64,000 bases of DNA from an uncultured Candidatus Saccharibacteria bacterium (GTDB lineage: Bacteria > Patescibacteriota > UBA1384 > CAILIB01), in NCBI GenBank assembly GCA_964593885.1, contig CAZQKK010000002.1, positions 84,363 through 148,362 of the forward strand, given 5' to 3'. Both the position numbers and the translations under genes were made by a program. The first letter of the stretch is position 1. Every line of letters starts with the position of its first letter. The notes below the pieces were generated by a model. The model ran no database searches. It saw nothing but the letters and a program-made list of their open reading frames with translations, and had not been told where the DNA came from. This document shows positions 13,826-24,551 of this stretch, piece by piece.

Positions 13826-16800
13826 ATGAAAACACAAGAGTACAGCGAGCAGTCTAACGACTTCAATGCCGTGCAGCTGCGGGTAGCAAGCCCAGATACC
13901 ATTCTGAGCTGGTCCCACGGTGAAACGCTGAAGCCAGAGACTATCAACTACCGCACCCAGAAGCCAGAGCGTGATGGCCTCTTCTGTGAGCGAATCTTTG
14001 GTCCTACCCAGGACTACAAGTGTTACTGTGGCAAATACAAGTCCATCCGTTACAAGGGAGTTATCTGTGACAAGTGTGGCGTTGAGGTAACAAAGTCATT
14101 TGTTCGTCGCGTCAGAATGGGTCACATTGACCTAGCCGTTCCAGTTGCTCACATCTGGTACGTCCAGGGTGTGCCTTCAGTGCTCGGTATGCTCCTCGAC
14201 ATGTCAGTTTCAGAGCTTGAGAAGATCATCTACTTCGCCGCTTACGTCATCCTTGATGTAAACGAGGACATCCGCAAGGAAGCCCTCGAGCAGCTTGAAG
14301 GTGAGTTCAAAGAGCTCCGCGCTGCCCTCCTGGACAACAAGTCAGCATCTGAGGTTACTGGCGATGCGCTCATCCGTCTCCAGCAGGTTGAGGCAGACTA
14401 CAAAGAAGCCAAGGGAGAGCTTACAAGCCTCGCAGCTTGCACGGTTATCTCTGAGGCTACCTACCACGATCTCTCACTCCGTTACGGAGCGATTATCAAG
14501 GTTGGAATTGGTGCTGAAGCAATCCGCGACCTCCTGAAGTCTGTAAAGCTTGAAGAGGGGATTGTTAGGCTCAAGGTTGAAGCAGACAACGCAAGCCCAC
14601 TGCAGCGCCGCAAGGCAATCCGTCGCCTGAAGCTCTACAACGACCTTCACAAGGCACAGATTAGTCCAGAGTGGCTGGTACTCTACCGTCTCCCTGTTAT
14701 CCCACCAGACCTTCGTCCGATGGTACAGCTTGATGGTGGTAGGTTTGCCGCTTCAGACCTCAACGACCTCTACCGTCGCGTTCTCAACCGAAACAACCGC
14801 CTCAAGAAGCTCCTCAACAGTGGTGCTCCTGAGGTAATCACCCGCAACGAGAAGCGCATGCTTCAAGAAGCGGTTGATGCCCTCGTGGACAACAACGCTC
14901 GTCGTGGAAAAGCTGCTGCAGCTGCTACTGGCCTCAAGCGAAAGCTCAAGAGCCTTTCTGACATGCTCCGCGGTAAGCAAGGACGTTTCCGTCAGAACCT
15001 CCTCGGAAAGCGCGTAGACTACTCCGGTCGTTCAGTAATTGTGGTTGGTCCTAACCTCAAGCTTCACCAGTGTGGACTTCCTAAGATGATGGCACTTGAG
15101 CTATTCAAGCCATTCCTCATTGGTCGTCTCATCAATGGTGGCTACGTCCACAACGTGAAGAACGCTACCCGTCTCATTGAGCAGGGTGAGAGCTTCATCT
15201 GGGACATCCTTGAGGACATCACCAAAGACCACTTCGTACTCCTCAACCGTGCTCCTACCCTTCACCGTCTCGGTATCCAGGCTTTCCAGCCGGTACTAAT
15301 TGAAGGTAAGTCCATCCAGATTCACCCACTCGTATGTACTGCCTACAACGCAGACTTCGATGGAGACCAGATGGCGGTTCACGTTCCTCTCTCTAAGGCT
15401 GCTCAGAAGGAAGCTGGAAGCATTATGCTTGCAAGCCACAACCTCCTGAAGCCTGCTTCTGGTGAGGTTATCGTTTCACCTACCAAGGACATGATTCTCG
15501 GCTGCTACTACATGACCCAGCTCAACGCTGATCAGAAAGGCGCCGGAAGGAGTTTCTCAAGTCAGGACGAGGCTATCATGGCCTACGACGCTGAAGTTGT
15601 TGAGTTCCTGGCTCCAATCAAGGTGCTCATCAACGGTGAGATGCTCGAGACAACAGTTGGTCGAATTATGTTCAACCAGATTGTCCCTGAAGCACTTGGC
15701 TACCAGAACACCGTTATGGATAAGAAGGGTGTTGCTAAGGTTATCGCCCGAAGCTTTGAAGAGCTTGGTACCGAGGTAACTGCCCAGTTTGTAGACGACC
15801 TCAAGAACATTGGGTTCACCTACGCTGAGCGTTCAGGTATTACCTTTGCCCTTTCAGATATCGTTATCCCAGACTCAAAGGATGCGGTGCTCGACAAGGC
15901 AGACGCTGCTGTTGACGAAATTGACAAGCAGTACCGCCGAGGTCTCATCACCAAGGAAGAGCAGTACGTGAAGACGGTTGAAATCTGGCTTGATGCCTCA
16001 AAGGTACTAGAGACAGATGTTATCAAGGGCTTCACCGAGAAGAACCCTATCATGACCATCTTCAAATCAGGTGCTCGTGGTACGATGACCAACCTCAACC
16101 AGATTGCTGGTATGAAGGGTCTCGTAGCAAACCCATCTGGAGCGATTATTGAGATTCCTCTCAAGAACAACTTCAAAGAAGGTCTCTCAGTGTTTGAGTA
16201 CTTCATTTCAACTCACGGTTCACGTAAGGGACGAGCAGACACTGCACTTCGTACATCTGATGCAGGGTACCTTACCCGTCGTCTCGTAGATGTTGCTCAA
16301 GATGTAGTGGTTGCCGAAACCGACTGTGGAAGCAACGAAGGCGTAACCCTCTACAAGTCTGATGAACTCCAGTTTGTCGACAAGTTTGAGGATTCTCTCC
16401 TCGGCCGCTTCACCGTAGGTGAGCAGGCAGGAGTTAAGGCAAACACCTTTATTGATGAAGAGGTTGCTAGGAAGCTCGCTGTTCAGGATGAGGTTATCGT
16501 AAGGTCTCCTCTCTACTGTCACAGTTCATGGGGAATCTGTCAGCACTGCTACGGAAAGAACCTCGCGAGTGGTCTCCTCGTAGAGCACGGTGAAGCAGTT
16601 GGTATCATCGCCGCGCAAGCAATTGGTGAGCCAGGAACCCAGCTGACCATGAAGACCTTCCACATGGGTGGAGTTGCTCAGACTGGTGGTGACATTACTG
16701 CAGGTCTCCCACGTGTTGAAGAGCTCTTTGAGGCTCGTTCGCCAAAGACACCTGCAATCATGGCTGAGATTGATGGAAAGGTAAGGATTGAGGAACGTCC

Positions 16801-17563
16801 AGAGGATATGCTCGTTACCATCCTTTCAGACAAGTCTGATTCACAGCTGGTGCATGTGCCAAAGGGCTACACCGTTGTGGTACAGGCTAAGGACAAGGTT
16901 GCTCCTAAGGACATCCTTGCTGAGTCAAAAGAGGGACGAAGTCTCCGCGCTACCCTCGCTGGTGTTGTCTCAATTGAAGAAGGCAAGGTAATTGTTACCG
17001 CCCACGAGACAGCCACCCGTGAGTACACCATTAGCAATAGCACCTCACTCAAGGTTGAGAACGGGGACGTTGTTACTAAGGGACAGGCGCTCACCGAAGG
17101 TCACCTTGACCTCCAGCAGCTCCTGTCACTCACCGGAAGAAAGGGTGTTGAGCGTTACATCGTCAACGAGGTACAGAGCATCTACTCTTCACAGGGTCAA
17201 ACCATTCACAACAAGCACATCGAGATTATCATCCGCCAGATGCTGTCAAAGGTGCAGGTTGTGGCTGCAGGTAACAGTGAGTACATTAGCGGTCAGACCA
17301 TCGAGCAAACAGACTTCCGTGCTGCTGACAAAGCAGGCCACACGGTTGAAGCTGACCAGCAGCTCCTCGGTATTACCCGTATCTCACTTCGCACCAAGAG
17401 CTTCCTCTCAGCCGCTTCATTCCAGGAAACTACCAGCGTTCTCATTGACGCTGCCGTCCAAGGAAAGCGTGATGAGCTAAGGGGCTTGAAAGAGAACGTG
17501 ATTATTGGTAAGCTCATTCCTGCTGGAACTGGCTACCAGCAAGAAGAAGCCAGTTCTAACTAA
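13826..17563 (+). CDS. rpoC: DNA-directed RNA polymerase beta' subunit.
   Basis: Zn-finger CYCGKYKSIRYKGVICDKCGVEV, catalytic NADFDGDQMAVH, and a trigger loop. Confidence 0.97.
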   Translation: MKTQEYSEQSNDFNAVQLRVASPDTILSWSHGETLKPETINYRTQKPERDGLFCERIFGPTQDYKCYCGKYKSIRYKGVICDKCGVEVTKSFVRRVRMGHIDLAVPVAHIWYVQGVPSVLGMLLDMSVSELEKIIYFAAYVILDVNEDIRKEALEQLEGEFKELRAALLDNKSASEVTGDALIRLQQVEADYKEAKGELTSLAACTVISEATYHDLSLRYGAIIKVGIGAEAIRDLLKSVKLEEGIVRLKVEADNASPLQRRKAIRRLKLYNDLHKAQISPEWLVLYRLPVIPPDLRPMVQLDGGRFAASDLNDLYRRVLNRNNRLKKLLNSGAPEVITRNEKRMLQEAVDALVDNNARRGKAAAAATGLKRKLKSLSDMLRGKQGRFRQNLLGKRVDYSGRSVIVVGPNLKLHQCGLPKMMALELFKPFLIGRLINGGYVHNVKNATRLIEQGESFIWDILEDITKDHFVLLNRAPTLHRLGIQAFQPVLIEGKSIQIHPLVCTAYNADFDGDQMAVHVPLSKAAQKEAGSIMLASHNLLKPASGEVIVSPTKDMILGCYYMTQLNADQKGAGRSFSSQDEAIMAYDAEVVEFLAPIKVLINGEMLETTVGRIMFNQIVPEALGYQNTVMDKKGVAKVIARSFEELGTEVTAQFVDDLKNIGFTYAERSGITFALSDIVIPDSKDAVLDKADAAVDEIDKQYRRGLITKEEQYVKTVEIWLDASKVLETDVIKGFTEKNPIMTIFKSGARGTMTNLNQIAGMKGLVANPSGAIIEIPLKNNFKEGLSVFEYFISTHGSRKGRADTALRTSDAGYLTRRLVDVAQDVVVAETDCGSNEGVTLYKSDELQFVDKFEDSLLGRFTVGEQAGVKANTFIDEEVARKLAVQDEVIVRSPLYCHSSWGICQHCYGKNLASGLLVEHGEAVGIIAAQAIGEPGTQLTMKTFHMGGVAQTGGDITAGLPRVEELFEARSPKTPAIMAEIDGKVRIEERPEDMLVTILSDKSDSQLVHVPKGYTVVVQAKDKVAPKDILAESKEGRSLRATLAGVVSIEEGKVIVTAHETATREYTISNSTSLKVENGDVVTKGQALTEGHLDLQQLLSLTGRKGVERYIVNEVQSIYSSQGQTIHNKHIEIIIRQMLSKVQVVAAGNSEYISGQTIEQTDFRAADKAGHTVEADQQLLGITRISLRTKSFLSAASFQETTSVLIDAAVQGKRDELRGLKENVIIGKLIPAGTGYQQEEASSN

Positions 17564-17569
17564 GAAACT

Positions 17570-17983
17570 ATGCCAACAATCAACCAGCTCCTCCGCCGCC
17601 CGCGGGTTACCGCTAAGAAGAAGCCTAACGCTCCGGTTTTGAAGTCAACCTTCAACACCTTCAAGAAGCGTCACGTTCCTCTTAACGCACCTCAGAAACG
17701 TGGAGTTTGCATCAAGGTTACTACCACCACACCAAAGAAGCCTAACTCGGCTCAACGTAAAGTAGCGCGCGTGAGGCTCACCAATGGTATGGAAACCTGG
17801 GCCTACATTCCAGGTGAAGGTCACAACCTCCAGGAACACTCAGTGGTTCTGGTGCGTGGCGGCCGGGTAAAGGACCTTCCAGGTGTTAAGTACCACATTG
17901 TGCGTGGCAAACTAGACGCACAAGGGGTAAAGGGCCGAAAGAAGAGCCGCAGCCTCTACGGCGTCAAGAAAGACGCAAAGTAG
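17570..17983 (+). CDS. rpsL: 30S ribosomal protein S12.
   Basis: [12 protein letters not shown]...[18 protein letters not shown]. Confidence 0.95.
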
Positions 17984-17995
17984 AGTGCTCAAAAA

Positions 17996-18024
17996 AAGCC
18001 TCGGAGAGATCCGGGGCTTTTTTG
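17996..18024. terminator. Bidirectional intrinsic terminator between rpsL (+) and the antisense coiled-coil gene (-).
   Basis: aaaaaaa-GCCTCGG-agagat-CCGGGGC-tttttt: a GC-rich stem flanked by an A-run and a T-run. Confidence 0.55.
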
Positions 18025-18375
18025 TTACACCTGAGCCAAGTGGTGAGCTGCTTTGTGGAGAGCTGTAGTGGTCTTTGCGTGCTGGGCGAGGTTCATGCTG
18101 CCTGACAGAGCAACTTGGTTAAGTTGAACCTGCATGCTTTGCACGGTGGTTTCCAAGGTATCTAGTCTGGACTCAATAGCGTCCAATCTAGCTTCCACCC
18201 TATCCAATCTAGCCTCTACTCTGTCCATCCTCGTTTCAAGGGACATCACGACAATTTCCAGGCTATCTACCTTGAGCTCTAGCGTGTCTATTCGCTTAGT
18301 AAGGGTAGCAATTGCCTGAGTGAGCGGCTCAAGAGCCGTCATTAACTCCTGAAGGGTGAGTGGTTTGTCCTGCAT
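18025..18375 (-). CDS. Hypothetical coiled-coil protein built from heptad repeats (x-L/V-E-x-R-L-D).
   Basis: ...DTLELKVDSLEIVVMSLETRMDRVEARLDRVEARLDAIESRLDTLETTVQSMQVQ. It lies on the strand opposite to rpsL and rpsG, inside the str operon. Confidence 0.55.
   Translation of the reverse strand: MQDKPLTLQELMTALEPLTQAIATLTKRIDTLELKVDSLEIVVMSLETRMDRVEARLDRVEARLDAIESRLDTLETTVQSMQVQLNQVALSGSMNLAQHAKTTTALHKAAHHLAQV
18134..18320. repeat. In-gene tandem 21-nt repeats, the DNA image of the heptad repeats.
   Basis: tccaatctagcttccaccctatccaatctagcctctactctgtcca: the unit tccaatctagcYtcYacYctR occurs twice in tandem, with degenerate copies either side. Confidence 0.5.
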
Positions 18376-18454
18376 AACCCAACCCTACAACGGGGGACAC
18401 GTGAGCGCAAGAGAACAAAACCCGGAAAATTCTTGACACCTTGCTCACACCTAA

Positions 18455-18482
18455 GTTACAAAAAACCACCCGAGGGGGGTGG
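18455..18482 (-). terminator. Intrinsic terminator for the minus-strand membrane-protein gene.
   Basis: The minus strand reads ccaccccccctcgggtgg followed by ttttttgtaac. Confidence 0.5.
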
Positions 18483-18495
18483 TAGAAACTAGTTA

Positions 18496-19167
18496 CTATC
18501 CGTATTCGCCACGCTCCTTCTCAATCTTAGCAACCCACGCTGACCATTCTCGCGACGTGGATCTGAAGACCGAAATTGCTGAGTAGGGTGACTGTGACAT
18601 GTAAGCTACGAAACCGGTGGTTGCTACCAGAAGGGGTATGAGAACCACCCACTGGTTTGGATGTTTGAGGCTCCATACCGCTGTAATGAACAGTGGAGTA
18701 AGAATACTGAAGAAAGCCAGCATTCCTACCGGGTTCAATTGTGTTGGCTCTAGTCCAAGCTTCCTCCGGAAAACCTTCTCCAGGAAGTAGCTGTGGATTC
18801 CCATCCCAATGATGTAGAGCATGAGACCAGATACCAATACGAACAGGACTGCCGTTGGCACGTAGAAGTCATGCATCCATACCCTGGAGTAAGACGTCGT
18901 AGATAGGATGTACTGGATTGGCATCCCGACAACGAAAGCTGCAAGTGAAAAGATGATCAAGTAGCAGCAGAGTACTTGGACGTCAGCCACTACCTTAAGT
19001 TGCCTCGCCAGCTGGAGGTTAGTGAAAAGATACTGTTTGCGTAACGGTGGATTGTTAATGTGACACCTTCCTTTGCGGCACATACTAGCAAAAGAGTAGG
19101 GAACCTGGTAGTATACACAGGATTTATCAATCGGTGCGCAGTACCAGACTCCCTGGGAAGTAAGCAC
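18496..19167 (-). CDS. Hypothetical integral membrane protein, about 4-5 TM helices, with a Cys-rich N-terminal segment. The true start may be an internal Met.
   Basis: N-term VWYCAPIDKSCVYY...MCRKGRCH, then hydrophobic helices (LCCYLIIFSLAAFVVG, AVLFVLVSGLMLYIIGMGI, LAFFSILTPLFITAVW, VVLIPLLVATTGFVAY). Its 5' end overlaps the region just upstream of rpsG. Confidence 0.45.
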   Translation of the reverse strand: MLTSQGVWYCAPIDKSCVYYQVPYSFASMCRKGRCHINNPPLRKQYLFTNLQLARQLKVVADVQVLCCYLIIFSLAAFVVGMPIQYILSTTSYSRVWMHDFYVPTAVLFVLVSGLMLYIIGMGIHSYFLEKVFRRKLGLEPTQLNPVGMLAFFSILTPLFITAVWSLKHPNQWVVLIPLLVATTGFVAYMSQSPYSAISVFRSTSREWSAWVAKIEKERGEYG

Positions 19168-19193
19168 ACCAAACCTAATTGTAAGGAGACACT

Positions 19194-19670
19194 ATGTCCC
19201 GAGGTACCCGTAAAATTGATCGCAAGGAGCTTGCGCCTGATCCAGTGTATGGTTCAGTTACCGTGAGCAAGATGATTAACTACATCATGAAGAACGGAAA
19301 GAAGACCGTTGCTACTAAGATTGCCTACGGCGCCATTGAGAAGGCTGCTGCTAAGCTTGAGGTAGAGGCTCTCGATATGCTTGAGACAGCAATCAAGAAC
19401 GTTACCCCAGTAGTTGAGGTACGTGGACGAAGAGTTGGTGGCGCAAACCTGCAGGTACCAGTTGAGGTTCCTCGCTCACGTCGTCTGATGCTTGCACTCC
19501 GTTGGATCCTCGATGCTGCTCGAAACGCTAAAGGTAAGCCAATGGCAGATAAGCTAGCAAACGAGCTCATTGCAGCCTACAACAACGAAGGTTCTGCTAT
19601 CCGAAAAAAGGATGAGACCCACCGTATGGCTGAGGCTAACAGAGCTTTCGCCCACTTCGCCCGTCGTTAA
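19194..19670 (+). CDS. rpsG: 30S ribosomal protein S7.
   Basis: MSRGTRKIDRKELAPDPVYGS...; an AGGAGA RBS lies 8 nt upstream. Confidence 0.95.
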   Translation: MSRGTRKIDRKELAPDPVYGSVTVSKMINYIMKNGKKTVATKIAYGAIEKAAAKLEVEALDMLETAIKNVTPVVEVRGRRVGGANLQVPVEVPRSRRLMLALRWILDAARNAKGKPMADKLANELIAAYNNEGSAIRKKDETHRMAEANRAFAHFARR

Positions 19671-19673
19671 GTT

Positions 19674-19916
19674 ATGAAGAAGGTACTCTACATTTCGTTT
19701 GCTGCCTTCTTGGTTACCCTGGGTTATCAGTTCTATTTCGCGTACGCTCCTATCAGTGGCATCGGCGTTGACCATTACTTTGATCTTCCTGCCTCAATGC
19801 AGCCTGATTCCGTGCTGTACACTCAGCTCATTCTCATTGCTTCAGTTCTGGGAATGATAATCTCATCTATTTCTATCACTATCCAAAAGCGTAAAAAGGA
19901 GAATCATGCCTCGTGA
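19674..19916 (+). CDS. Small hypothetical membrane protein, 2 TM helices, 80 aa.
   Basis: [19 protein letters not shown] and [19 protein letters not shown] followed by KRKKE. It starts 4 nt after rpsG and overlaps the fusA start by 11 nt. Confidence 0.4.
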
Positions 19917-22011
19917 ATATCCTCTAGAAAAAGTTAGGAACATTGGTATCATCGCCCACATTGATGCGGGTAAAACTACCACCACAGAGCGCGTGCTCTA
20001 CTACACCGGAAAGACCCACAAGATTGGTGAGGTGCACGATGGTGCTGCAACCATGGACTGGATGGAGCAGGAGCAGGAGCGAGGTATCACCATTACCTCA
20101 GCTGCTACTACCGCTTTCTGGACCCCTACCACCCGTGAAGGTAAGGACACCCACCGTCTCAATATCATTGATACCCCAGGACACGTAGACTTCACCGTTG
20201 AAGTACAGCGTTCACTTCGCGTACTAGACGGAGGAGTTGTCGTATTTGATGGTGTAGCTGGTGTAGAGCCACAGTCTGAGACTGTTTGGCGCCAAGCTGA
20301 TGAGTACGGAGTACCTCGCGTCTGTTTCATCAACAAGCTCGATCGCATGGGTGCTGACTTCTTCAAGGCGTACAAGTCTATCCTCGATCGCCTCAACCCA
20401 AACGCTATCCCAGTTCAGCTCCCGATTGGTTCAGAAGCTGAATTCAAGGGAATCATTGACCTCCTCACCGGCACAGCCCGCATCTACAAAGATGACATGG
20501 GCAAGGTATTTGAGGACGTTTCAGTACCTGCGGAATACCAGGAAATGTACACCGAGTGGCGCACCAAGCTCCTCGAGAAGATTGCCGAGCAAGATGATGT
20601 ACTCATGGAGAAGTTCTTTGCTGGTGAAGAGATGACCATCGCCGAGATGCGCGCTGGTATCCGTAAGGGAACCCTCGCTCGCACCCTCATCCCAGTTCTC
20701 TGTGGTTCAGCCCTCAAGAACAAGGGCGTTCAGTCAATGCTTGACGCCGTAGTTGAGTACCTCCCAAGTCCACTGGATATCCCAGCAATTAAAGGTACCA
20801 ACCCAAAAAACCCTGATGAGCAACTTGAGCGACACGCCGATGACTCAGAGCCTTTCTCAGCCCTCGCCTTCAAGATTGCTTCAGACCCATTCGTGGGGAA
20901 GCTTACCTTCTTCCGTGTTTACTCAGGCATGCTGAAAGCTGGTTCGTACGTCTACAACTCAAGTAAGGGTGAACAGGAACGAATTGGTCGTATTGTTCGT
21001 CTCCACGCAAACAGCCGTGAAGATGTGAACGAAGTGTACTCGGGTGAAATCGCAGCCGCTATCGGCCTCAAGAACACCACAACAGGGGACACCCTCACCG
21101 ACCAGAGTAAGCAGATTCTCCTCGAAACCATCAACTTTGCCGATCCTGTTATCCAACAGTCTATCGAGCCTAAGACTAAGGCTGACCAAGAGAAGATGGG
21201 TATTGCCCTCTCACGTCTCTCAGAAGAAGACCCAACCTTCAGAATCACCACCAACCACGAGACGGGTCAGACCCTTATCGCTGGAATGGGTGAGCTCCAC
21301 CTCGAGATCATCGTTGATCGTATGAAGCGCGAGTTCAAGGTTGAGGCAAACGTTGGTCAGCCACAGGTAGCTTTCAAAGAGGCTATTCGTATGGCTGTTA
21401 AGGACATTGATGGTAAGTTCGTTCGTCAGTCTGGTGGACGCGGACAGTTTGGCCACGTTGTGATCGACATGGAACCAGCAGAGCGCGGCTCCGGATTTGT
21501 CTTCGAGAACAAGATTGTGGGTGGTGCTATTCCTAAGGAGTTTATCAAGCCTGCAGAAGAAGGAATGCGTGAAGCCCTCGAGCGAGGTGTACTCGCTGGC
21601 TACCCAGTTCTCGACGTTAAGGTTACCCTCAAAGATGGTTCGTACCACGATGTAGACTCCTCAGAAATGGCATTCAAAATTGCCGGATCTATGGCAGTCC
21701 AGGTAGCGGTTAAAGCTGCAAACCCTGCCATCCTTGAGCCAATCATGAAGGTGGAGGTCCTCGTACCTGAAGATTACTTCGGTGAGGTAATGGGCGATAT
21801 CAACAGCCGTCGTGGTCAGATTCTCGGTACCACCGAGCGCGTTGGCCTCAAGGTTATCGACGCCGAGGTTCCTCTTGCAAGCATGTTTGGCTACACCACC
21901 ACCCTGCGCTCGATGAGTCAGGGACGTGGTACCTCCACCATGGAGTTTGCCCACTACGCTGAAGTTCCAAACAATGTTCAGCAACAAATTATTGACGGCA
22001 AGGTAAAGTAG
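19906..22011 (+). CDS. fusA: Elongation factor G.
   Basis: [29 protein letters not shown]. Confidence 0.97.
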
Positions 22012-22032
22012 TTGCCTACTTGCCACCAGAAG

Positions 22033-22064
22033 CAGCCACTCGAAAGGGTGGCTGTTTTCTTTTC
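22033..22064 (+). terminator. Intrinsic terminator after fusA.
   Basis: cagccac-tcgaaagg-gtggctg followed by ttttcttttc. Confidence 0.55.
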
Positions 22065-22090
22065 TCGAGTATTTGAGGTACACTCATCCC

Positions 22091-22807
22091 ATGCGACAGT
22101 ACGTCATTCCAAACCTCCAAAACTACACACTCAGAGATGCAACCTCTGACTACAATGCCTCAGACCTGCAGGTAAAGCGCGATGCTTTGGCATCAAAAGT
22201 TATTGAAGAGCTTACCTACTTCTTTGGCGAAGGTTGTCCAGCAATTGCGGTAATTAAGGAGAAAGGTCTTCTACCCTTCATGTGGGTTATGGGAGCAGAT
22301 GACAACCAGGAAGATATTAAGCGAATTTTCCACGTTGATGACCACACCGCGCAGGGGATTCGCCACATTCTCAACCTTGCAGACATTCTTGCTCCAAAGA
22401 AGGTGGGATCCCAGTACCTCCTCCGTACCGCCAGAGATGTGGTACTTGCGGTAGATGACCTCCCATACAAGGAAAGAGAGGAGGTTGTCGTGCTCCTCGT
22501 TGACGCATCACAGCTCATCATTCATAGGGAACTCATCAGTGTGGGTGGAATTGATGGTGCTACACTCAACCCTTCAGATGTTCTCGTACCGGTAATTCAA
22601 CGTGGTGCTCCTGCTTTTGTCCTCGTTCACAACCACCCATCTGGTGATCCAACTCCAAGCCAGGTTGACCTAGACTTCACTGCCAGGGTAAAAGAAGCTT
22701 CGGTACTGATGAAGAAAGCTTTTTTAGACCACGTCATTGTTAGTTCACATGGGATGAGAAGCTGCCTGGATGTCTTGGAGAGTAAATCTGTTGACAAGCA
22801 GGAGTAG
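22091..22807 (+). CDS. radC: RadC-like JAB/MPN-domain protein (UPF0758 family). The ATG is at 22091; the track's TTG start at 22073 is less likely.
   Basis: JAB signature VLVHNHPSGDPTPSQVDLDFTARVKEASVLMKKAFLDHVIVSS. Confidence 0.8.
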   Translation: MRQYVIPNLQNYTLRDATSDYNASDLQVKRDALASKVIEELTYFFGEGCPAIAVIKEKGLLPFMWVMGADDNQEDIKRIFHVDDHTAQGIRHILNLADILAPKKVGSQYLLRTARDVVLAVDDLPYKEREEVVVLLVDASQLIIHRELISVGGIDGATLNPSDVLVPVIQRGAPAFVLVHNHPSGDPTPSQVDLDFTARVKEASVLMKKAFLDHVIVSSHGMRSCLDVLESKSVDKQE

Positions 22808-22820
22808 TTTCGTCTATAAT
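22791..22820 (+). promoter_or_regulatory. Near-consensus sigma70 promoter for tuf, lying within the 3' end of the radC-like gene.
   Basis: TTGACA, an 18-nt spacer, then TATAAT. An AAAGGAG RBS sits 6 nt before the tuf ATG at 22908. Confidence 0.6.
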
Positions 22821-22907
22821 CACCTCTGATACGGTTACTGCCGCTTTTCTGTGGTTGTAGCATCAAATTACAAAATTACGTTCACGTAACAGTTGAAAGG
22901 AGTTTGC

Positions 22908-24086
22908 ATGGCAGAGATGTTCCAACGTACAAAGCCTCACGTAAATGTAGGTACCATTGGTCACGTTGACCACGGTAAGACTACCCTTACGGCAGCTATT
23001 TGTACCATTCTTGCAAAGAAGGGTCTTTCACAGGCTCGTAGCTATGCAGATATCGACAATGCCCCAGAAGAGAAGGCACGTGGTATTACCATCGCCACCT
23101 CTCACCAGGAGTACGAGTCAGCAGTTCGTCACTACGCACACGTTGACTGTCCAGGTCACGCAGACTACGTAAAGAACATGATTACGGGTGCTGCTCAGAT
23201 GGATGCTGCAATTCTTGTAGTATCTGCTGCTGACGGTCCAATGCCACAGACTCGTGAGCACATCCTGCTCGCTTCTCAGGTAGGTGTTAAGAACATTGTC
23301 GTCTTCCTGAACAAGGTAGATATGGCAGATGAAGACCTCCTTGAGCTAGTAGAGGTTGAGGTTCGTGACCTCCTTTCTAAGTACGGCTTCCCAGGAGATG
23401 ACGTTCCAGTTATCAAGGGATCAGCTCTCAAGGCTCTTGAGGGTGACGCTAAGTACGAAGAGGCTATCATGGAGCTCGTAAGCGCCCTTGATACCTACGT
23501 TCCAGATCCAGTTCGTGAAACCGACAAGCCACTCCTTATGCCTGTTGAGGATGTATTCTCAATCAAAGGCCGCGGAACAGTTGCTACCGGTCGTATCGAG
23601 CGCGGTACTGTTAAGGTAGGTGAAGAGGTAGAGATCGTTGGTATCAAGCCAACCAAGAAGGTTATTGTTACCGGAGTAGAAATGTTCCGCAAACAGCTTG
23701 AGCGCGGTGAAGCTGGTGACAACGTTGGTCTCCTCATGCGTGGTATTGAGCGCGAAGACATTGAGCGTGGTCAGGTTATCGCTAAGTCAGGTTCAATTAC
23801 TCCTCACACAGACTTTGACTCAGAAGTATACGTACTCTCTAAGGAAGAAGGCGGACGCCACACTCCATTCTCAAAGGGCTACAAACCACAGTTCTACGTT
23901 CGTACAACAGACGTAACTGGTGAGGTTGTTCTCCCAGATGGTGTAGAAATGGTTATGCCAGGAGACACCGTTAAGATGAAGGTTTCCCTTATCGTACCGG
24001 TAGCTATGGAAGATGGTATGCGTTTCGCTATCCGCGAAGGTGGACGTACCGTAGGTTCTGGTGTAGTAACCAAGATCCTCAAATAA
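22908..24086 (+). CDS. tuf: Elongation factor Tu.
   Basis: [43 protein letters not shown]. Confidence 0.97.
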
Positions 24087-24104
24087 GTTTTCAGTACACG
24101 TAGT

Positions 24105-24120
24105 CCCGCCCTTGGGCGGG
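24105..24120 (+). terminator. GC hairpin after tuf, a weak terminator or attenuator.
   Basis: cccgccc-ttg-ggcggg followed by attcgtgtgtt. Confidence 0.4.
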
Positions 24121-24171
24121 ATTCGTGTGTTGAGAACCAAACATCAACTCAACAAGTAGTAATTTCACGGA

Positions 24172-24489
24172 ATGGCCGAAGCAGCAAAGCAGAAAATTCG
24201 CATCAGACTCAAAGCTTACGATTACCGTATCATTGATAAGTCTGCAAAGCACATCATTGATACCGCCGTACGTACTGGCGCAAGCGTTGTTGGACCTATC
24301 CCACTTCCTACAGACCGCAAGATTACTACCGTTCTCAGAAGTCCTCACGTTGATAAGGACTCCCGTGAACAGTTTGAGATGCGCATCCACAAGCGCTTGA
24401 TTGACGTTCTTGACCCAACATCCTCTACAATTGACTCTCTGATGAACCTAGACCTGCCTGCAGGTGTAGACATCGAGATCAAGATGTAG
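24172..24489 (+). CDS. rpsJ: 30S ribosomal protein S10.
   Basis: [24 protein letters not shown]. Confidence 0.95.
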
Positions 24490-24551
24490 TCAACCCTATC
24501 CACCCCTAGAAAGCAGAACCTCTGGTACACCGTGCCACGTTCGGAGACACC

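Follow-up and report, generated by a model that had tools for sequence, protein, structure and literature searches.

The genes rpsL and rpsG are among the most stable gene pairs in bacteria. In the DNA considered here, a stretch of 64,000 nucleotides (the window) from an uncultured Candidatus Saccharibacteria bacterium (contig CAZQKK010000002.1, positions 84,363 to 148,362), they lie 1,210 bp apart, and the gap between them spans 17984-19193. An earlier note on the window, made from the letters alone, had described this spacer as carrying two minus-strand open reading frames (ORFs), each followed by a hairpin and a run of T. That description is confirmed, and the features concerned are:

17570-17983, plus strand: rpsL (S12), an ORF matching Pfam Ribosom_S12_S23 with 120 bits, which closes a co-directional rpoB-rpoC-rpsL unit
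18025-18375, minus strand: ORF for a 116-aa coiled-coil protein, inside the rpsL-rpsG gap
18496-19167, minus strand: ORF for a membrane protein of at most 223 aa, read from a GTG, inside the rpsL-rpsG gap
19194-19670, plus strand: rpsG (S7), an ORF matching Pfam Ribosomal_S7 with 190 bits

The minus-strand ORFs take up 85% of the 1.2-kb spacer. They lie within a long run of co-directional genes and are the only ones on the opposite strand there that stand free: among ORFs of at least 110 aa in the first 46.8 kb, all others on the minus strand overlap a plus-strand ORF of greater length. The order rpsL-rpsG-fusA-tuf on a single strand is kept, as in the canonical str operon. The reading that we favor, with moderate confidence, is that the spacer is a clade-specific break in the str operon that has turned into a gene-turnover slot for orphan membrane ORFs, and that it is not an antisense regulatory device.

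The rpsL-rpsG junction in related genomes

For comparison, 160 loci around S7 relatives were fetched from species-representative genomes and metagenomes; 154 of them hold both rpsL and rpsG. The gap between the two genes has a median of 17 bp in these 154 loci and nowhere exceeds 200 bp outside the clade of the window. Enlarged gaps are found in L002 (504 bp), in L082 and L083 (585 bp; identical sequence from two metagenomes), in L003 (812 bp) and in the window itself, and these are exactly the loci whose S7 is at least 82% identical to that of the window. The nearest public loci are L002, from a metagenome-assembled genome (MAG) labeled 'Patescibacteria group' (S7 85% identical), and L003, from a 'Candidatus Berkelbacteria' MAG (83%). 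The rpsL-ORF-ORF-rpsG arrangement of a 1,792-bp Logan contig (L001) is identical to that of the window. The outgroups L004/L085, L084 and L086 (S7 about 68% identical) have a gap of 72-79 bp, in which the leader motif described below is present and a terminator is not. None of the 150 other loci examined has a broken junction. Because only loci with an S7 at least 82% identical are split and the outgroups at about 68% are not, the break is, as judged from these sequences, a shared derived feature of one small Patescibacteria (Berkelbacteria-like) clade. The earlier suggestion of an old insertion that is now fixed is thus borne out in part: the break is old at the level of the clade, being present in all four lineages with this degree of S7 identity, while the genes inside it turn over.

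In each split lineage the longest spacer ORF lies on the minus strand, begins beside the rpsG promoter region and has transmembrane (TM) segments. These cargo ORFs are:

Window, minus strand: 126-223 aa, 3-4 TM
L003, minus strand: 183 aa, 2 TM
L082, minus strand: 121 aa, 3-4 TM
L002, minus strand: 54 aa, 1 TM

The four show no mutual similarity (nothing by BLASTP; z below 2.3 by Smith-Waterman comparison with shuffles), and the spacers have no similarity outside their flanks by blastn at word size 7 or by tblastx. L002 and L003 are close relatives, with 93.8% identity in EF-G and 91.7% in S7. The ends of their spacers are alike, with 72% DNA identity across the rpsL-side terminators and 83% across promoter and leader, and the middles are unrelated; given that degree of EF-G identity, common flanks around an unrelated middle argue for replacement, not divergence. 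An apparent kinship between the L002 and L003 cargo in a MAFFT global alignment (about 55% identity over the first ~20 codons) is indistinguishable from chance and is not claimed. The window spacer has only the leader in common with L002 and L003. A conserved, fixed two-gene insert is therefore not what the relatives contain: the cargo differs wholly between lineages, even between L002 and L003, and the coiled-coil gene is confined to the window genome, with no tblastn match for the 116-aa ORF in any related locus. The L003 cargo finds only itself in a large protein database search, and nothing in Pfam, PHROGs or PADLOC matches the cargo ORFs of the three relatives. Orphan status applies to the window and L003 ORFs, the L082 and L002 cargo having been compared solely with the other cargos and with family libraries.

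Terminators, candidate promoters and leader RNA

Five elements at the ends and in the middle of the spacer bear on how it is transcribed:

17991-18023, both strands: two-way intrinsic terminator, consisting of A7, stem GCCTCGGA, loop GAGA, stem TCCGGGGC and T6
18465-18483, minus strand: second terminator, ACCACCC/GGGTGGT followed by T5, 12 nt past the stop codon of the membrane ORF
19086-19114, plus strand: candidate rpsG promoter, TAGCAA, 17 nt, TG-n-TAGTAT (extended -10), 23 nt before the leader motif
19110-19140, minus strand: candidate promoter with -10 TATACT at 19115-19110, -35 TGCGCA at 19140-19135 and a 19-nt spacer
19133-19170, plus strand: conserved rpsG leader RNA of 38 nt, with P1 GGUGCGC/GCACACC, internal loop AGUA // GAAGUAA and P2 CCAG-ACUCC-CUGG

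The hairpin on the rpsL side has its stem arms at 17998-18005 and 18010-18017 and is recovered as an inverted repeat in a repeat scan. Its folding energy is -23.1 kcal/mol (z -4.8) for the plus strand and -20.4 kcal/mol (z -5.3) for the minus strand, values that none of the shuffled sequences equals. A structure of this strength should end both the rpoBC-rpsL transcript, on the plus strand, and that of the coiled-coil gene, on the minus strand. The second hairpin has a T-run on the minus strand only and is weak (-13.1 kcal/mol, z -1.4), so that read-through into the coiled-coil gene is plausible. A terminator-like hairpin follows rpsL in each split relative and in none of the unsplit outgroups. 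The L002 spacer has 3-4 successive terminator-like hairpins between rpsL and the 54-aa ORF (L002 4000-4230), including GAGGC-GAAA-GCCTC-T5 and GGGAGAG-TTTA-CTCTCCC-AT5; the hairpin ACGACCACT...AGTGGTCGT of this spacer also occurs in L003.

Every split lineage has promoter-like hexamers 16-24 nt before the leader (TTGCAA-17-TATACT in L082, TTTACA-17-TACACT in L002 and L003), and the window candidate aligns with those of L002 and L003. With a strong terminator after rpsL and such hexamers before the leader, rpsG most likely uses its own new promoter, which was one of the two possibilities raised earlier. The candidate -10 elements of the two strands, TAGTAT at 19109-19114 (plus) and TATACT at 19115-19110 (minus), overlap with a shift of 1 bp, which lets positions 2 and 6 pair. 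In a bidirectional promoter with such a symmetric -10, transcripts of the two strands start 18 bp from each other and run in divergent directions (Warman et al., bioRxiv 10.1101/2020.01.31.928960). The window resembles reported bidirectional bacterial promoters (Warman et al., bioRxiv 10.1101/2020.01.31.928960; NAR 2026 PMC12825309) in its 1-bp offset of the -10 elements; it differs from them in being a sequence pattern only, with poor -35 elements and a symmetry that is weak in the relatives. The 5' end of a minus-strand transcript from this site would fall some 20 nt ahead of the ATG at 19083.

The leader RNA is followed by the Shine-Dalgarno sequence of rpsG (AGGAG, 19184-19188). The wider clade provides seven distinct sequences, from split and unsplit loci alike, and each of them has the leader fold as its minimum-energy structure, with stem sequences that differ and pairing that is kept. 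Thus P1 reads GAGUGC/GCGCUC in L002, GGUUUGC/GCAGACC in L082 and GGUGCGC/GCACACC in the window, and P2 reads CCUCG/CGAGG in L002 and CCAG/CUGG in the window. The internal loop (AGUA and GAAG/GAAC) is invariant, and the P2 hairpin keeps the form CC..GG. The leader lies at 4437-4473 in L002, 4130-4166 in L003 and 3943-3977 in L082, and it also precedes rpsG in L004, L084 and L086; in a pattern search, these loci of the clade are the only ones with the motif before rpsG, and the other ~150 lack it. A covariance model built from two sequences, L002 and L003, gave L082, the window and L084 as its next-best matches in 0.95 Mb and missed L004. The evidence for the fold is that of minimum-energy structures computed sequence by sequence, since MAFFT misaligned the 3' arms, which precluded a formal count of covariation. 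Rfam gives no match at E<=1 in 17000-24500 and none at the gathering score in the whole window.

A conserved structure with compensatory changes just upstream of the gene is the generic mark of a ribosomal-protein leader, and the rpsG leader has these properties. By its position it is a candidate site of S7 autoregulation or feedback. In E. coli, S7 regulates its own production by way of translational coupling to rpsL. The RNA between rpsL and rpsG is where S7 exerts this repression (Fu et al. 2013, PMC3616713). Extended rpsL-rpsG distances have been reported for many bacteria, where the extended spacers are regulatory RNA and not genes (PMC3616713). In comparison with the canonical str operon of E. 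coli (PMC3616713), the window has the same gene order and a structured RNA directly before rpsG, where S7 acts. It differs in that a terminator and opposite-strand genes stand between the two genes, which makes translational coupling of S12 and S7 impossible, and in that its leader is a much smaller structure that matches nothing in Rfam. As the leader is present in the unsplit outgroups, the insertion landed upstream of an older, putatively regulatory element.

The minus-strand ORFs of the window

The membrane ORF (18496-19167) encodes 3-4 predicted TM helices and a charged C-terminal tail. Hydropathy gives four hydrophobic segments at regular spacing, as would fit a 4-TM protein whose charged loops lie on one side. 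Its 223 aa are a maximal length; the only database entry is a 126-aa call that starts at M98 (18876), and other possible starts lie at 19083 (M29) and 18990 (V60). The Cys-rich N-terminus of the earlier description does exist in the 223-aa translation (C10, C17, C30, C35, H36), and so does the overlap of the 5' end with the region upstream of rpsG: codons 1-12 are antisense to the conserved leader hairpin, and codons 18-28 are antisense to the promoter-like site. Because of this overlap the N-terminal part is probably not translated, and the ORF is probably over-extended at its 5' end. Starts at 19083, 18990 or 18876 are more likely, in which case the CxxxxxxC...CxxxxC-H motif would lie mostly outside the protein. 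The ORF belongs to no family in Pfam, NCBIfam, PHROG or PADLOC and has no relative among viral contigs. A word-indexed search of 5.8 billion clustered proteins returns only a self-match, the 126-aa entry, as does an exhaustive phmmer search against 1.84 billion representatives. A single-sequence AlphaFold (AF2) model of the 223-aa ORF is all-helical and uninformative (pLDDT 58, pTM 0.35). A type I toxin, a peptide with a single TM, fewer than ~60 aa and an antisense RNA that overlaps it, was considered and rejected for the window ORF, which has 126-223 aa and 3-4 TM; only the L002 ORF (54 aa, 1 TM) is of that size.

The 116-aa ORF had been described as a heptad-repeat coiled coil, and the coiled coil is real, with about nine uninterrupted heptads of the (V/I)ExRLD type. 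A tandem duplication of 21 bp (7 aa) at 18182-18227 (2.2 copies, 84% matches), in which the repeated heptad is RLDRVEA, is a recent in-frame expansion. No hydrophobic segment of the membrane-anchor kind is visible in the translation, and an alternative start at M12 (18342), with an AGGAG Shine-Dalgarno sequence, gives a product of 105 aa. Against Pfam the ORF scores 45.2 bits with DUF7310 (cut-off 40) and 26.3 bits with XhlA, of the phage XhlA/hemolysin-type family (below its cut-off of 34.7), among 116 coiled-coil families that match at E<=1. Scans of NCBIfam, PHROGs and PADLOC give nothing beyond generic coiled-coil matches. Matches among the 5.8 billion proteins are of the repeat type only (30-48% over the repeat), and the single viral match, a 106-aa protein on one IMG/VR contig, has the RLDxxEA(RLD) repeat alone in common. 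On such evidence, the similarity to DUF7310, XhlA and the others is one of heptad composition and not demonstrable homology. The 116-aa product has no exact-sequence entry in the deposited annotation.

Explanations of the split junction

According to the explanation that we propose, the ancestor would have co-transcribed rpsL and rpsG over a spacer of ~75 bp, mostly a small structured RNA, as in the relatives with ~68% S7 identity. DNA would then have been inserted between the rpsL stop codon and the leader in the common ancestor of the clade with at least 82% S7 identity. The rpoBC-rpsL transcript would now halt at the strong two-way terminator, and rpsG, the 80-aa ORF behind it and fusA would be transcribed from their own sigma-70-type promoter, ~25 nt before the retained leader, through which S7 feedback may persist. 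The space between would be filled by minus-strand units that run away from the rpsG promoter region and toward rpsL, with a content that is quickly replaced, leaving four unrelated small membrane ORFs in the slot in four lineages. In the window these units would be a 3-4-TM protein of 126-195 aa and a coiled-coil protein of ~105-116 aa. The membrane gene probably starts at or after 19083, and the back side of the rpsG promoter may drive it; expression of the coiled-coil gene probably depends on a weak promoter or on read-through from upstream, past the leaky terminator. The spacer most likely encodes dispensable envelope or accessory proteins, each specific to its lineage.

Gene-turnover hotspots are fixed chromosomal sites at which variable accessory genes are exchanged via homologous flanks. 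Like hotspots between core genes, the slot has conserved flanks (rpsL with the terminator at one end, and the promoter, the leader and rpsG at the other) and a middle that is unrelated even in close relatives. It differs from them in being tiny (0.15-1 kb of cargo), in lying inside a core ribosomal operon, and in holding orphan ORFs only, with no integrases or recognisable accessory functions.

Several points weigh against this explanation. The four split lineages sampled are all metagenomic, and a single ancestral insertion is not separable from repeated insertions at one site. The candidate rpsG promoter of the window is weak, with 7 of 12 matches plus the TG, below the threshold of a standard scan. 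Promoters, terminator function and translation are all deduced from the letters of the DNA. Further points concern the ORFs themselves and could also be explained if these were not genes and the spacer were expanded non-coding DNA, made up of terminators, promoter and leader, with the open frames as by-products. Their codon scores (0.12 for the 116-aa ORF; -0.04 to 0.03, that is ~0 and below normal genes, for the membrane ORF) do not rise above the floor of the range for real genes (0.12-0.65), and spurious ORFs reach such values in their upper tail. A good Shine-Dalgarno sequence is missing before all candidate starts of the membrane ORF. The public annotation calls just the last 126 of its 223 codons, to which the missing entry for the 116-aa product may be added; the 54-aa ORF of L002 is no longer than expected by chance from shuffles; and the ORFs are unconserved in any relative or database. 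We nevertheless regard non-coding expansion as unlikely. Of Markov-shuffled versions of the spacer, 0.1% yield an ORF of 223 codons, and the minus-strand ORFs of L003 and L082 are also longer than chance, so that the lengths are improbable in three of the four lineages (P=0.001, 0.0045 and 0.01), with the long ORF always on the minus strand. The reading frame is the best of six in each case, by far so for both window ORFs; terminators follow the stop codons of the 116-aa and membrane ORFs at 1 nt and 12 nt; and minus-strand ORFs cover 85% of the spacer. The regularly spaced hydrophobic segments, as in a 4-TM topology, and the clean nine-heptad register with its recent in-frame duplication likewise speak for coding function. 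Both window ORFs are probably genes, young or atypical ones.

If they are genes, the slot might be more than a place of exchange, namely a cradle in which new genes arise. Divergent transcription from a symmetric promoter would keep any insert expressed, and T-rich open frames, bounded by ready-made terminators, would repeatedly yield novel small membrane proteins, the four orphan ORFs being independent births or very rapid replacements. This extension is doubtful. A sign of birth de novo would be an outgroup whose non-coding sequence at this site is homologous to the gene; here the outgroups are without the segment, and the sister lineages carry unrelated sequence.

Exchange of dispensable cargo, as we favor, has also to be set against regulation. 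The earlier note had raised the possibility that antisense transcription modulates S7, EF-G and EF-Tu; in its more general form, antisense or divergent transcription would tune rpsG-fusA-tuf, either because transcription on one strand interferes with that on the other or because the two compete at a symmetric promoter that they share. The overlap of the opposite-strand -10 elements at 19109-19115, with their 1-bp offset, would fit, given that one polymerase binding event excludes the other in reported bidirectional promoters, and an antisense ORF begins beside the rpsG promoter region in all four lineages. The geometry, however, gives antisense control no support: the minus-strand units are convergent with rpsL, where terminators should stop them short of the gene, and divergent from rpsG, so that no overlap with the rpsG mRNA or with the other ribosomal genes is required. 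In addition, a tuned regulator would be expected to be conserved, and the cargo is not; L002, L003 and L082 have a weak symmetric -10; and rpsG has kept an older, putatively cis-regulatory leader that can account for its control. A regulatory role is thus quite improbable, and competition at the shared promoter region is the only form of antisense control that is possible.

Marks of a recent insertion event are missing from the spacer. The borders carry no direct or inverted repeats other than short chance repeats, so that the direct-repeat scars which the earlier note had proposed to look for were not found; nor is there a step in GC or skew (GC 0.47-0.50, like the flanks), a transposase or integrase gene in the spacer, or a tRNA nearby. 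A recent mobile-element or phage-fragment insertion specific to the window genome, suggested by the sub-threshold matches of the coiled-coil protein to phage XhlA/hemolysin-type families and by the repeat common to it and the one IMG/VR protein, is very unlikely in view of these absences, since those matches reflect a repeat composition found in dozens of unrelated families, the membrane ORF is without viral relatives, and the relatives are split at the same site, which dates the break before the window genome.

The rest of the operon is interrupted too. The genes next to the split pair are:

13826-17563: rpoC, directly before rpsL
19674-19916, plus strand: ORF for a small two-TM membrane protein of 80 aa, between rpsG and fusA, present in the NCBI-derived protein set
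19906-22011: fusA, after the 80-aa ORF
22073-22807: RadC-like gene (JAB; Pfam 94 bits), between fusA and tuf
22893-24086: tuf, after the RadC-like gene

The 80-aa ORF overlaps the start of fusA by 11 nt. It has a homologue (49% identical) at the equivalent position in L002 only, the rpsG-fusA junction of L003 and L082 being 18-21 bp long, and it is the second lineage-restricted small membrane ORF added to the same operon. An exact-sequence look-up in the contig index gives no gene record for its product or for the 223-aa product. The rpsG-fusA junction exceeds 300 bp (0.3-4 kb) in 33 distinct related loci, with ORFs of 50-650 aa on either strand. Loci of this kind include L005, L007, L016, L031, L034, L035, L039, L041, L066 and L089; the inserts encode a protein with a prepilin-type N-terminus in L035 and a 650-aa multi-TM protein in L041. 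In the window the fusA-tuf junction (22029-22820) is broken as well, with a terminator at 22029-22058, the RadC-like gene, and a perfect TTGACA-18-TATAAT at 22791-22820 before tuf. The syntenic RadC genes of L002, L004 and L082 are just 31-34% identical, in contrast to 81-89% for EF-G. The split rpsL-rpsG junction is like these interrupted rpsG-fusA and fusA-tuf junctions of other Patescibacteria in having extra genes, on either strand, between str genes, and unlike them in that they are broken in many lineages. Since both downstream junctions are also interrupted, piecemeal fragmentation of the str operon is usual in the phylum, and only the rpsL-rpsG break is unusual. A literature search found no paper that combines rpsL, rpsG and the Candidate Phyla Radiation.

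The locus is a variant of known phenomena, namely operon fragmentation, core-gene hotspots and ribosomal-protein leaders; it offers no new mechanism, and its importance is modest. The clade shows that the rpsL-rpsG pair can be uncoupled, and a terminator, a new promoter and a retained leader appear to replace co-transcription. A candidate S7 leader RNA is a by-product, in a Patescibacteria lineage without a known ribosomal-protein leader family detected here. The space set free acts as a fast-turnover site for orphan membrane ORFs, and the locus as a whole provides a compact natural case of how core operons fragment in reduced genomes and where orphan genes originate.

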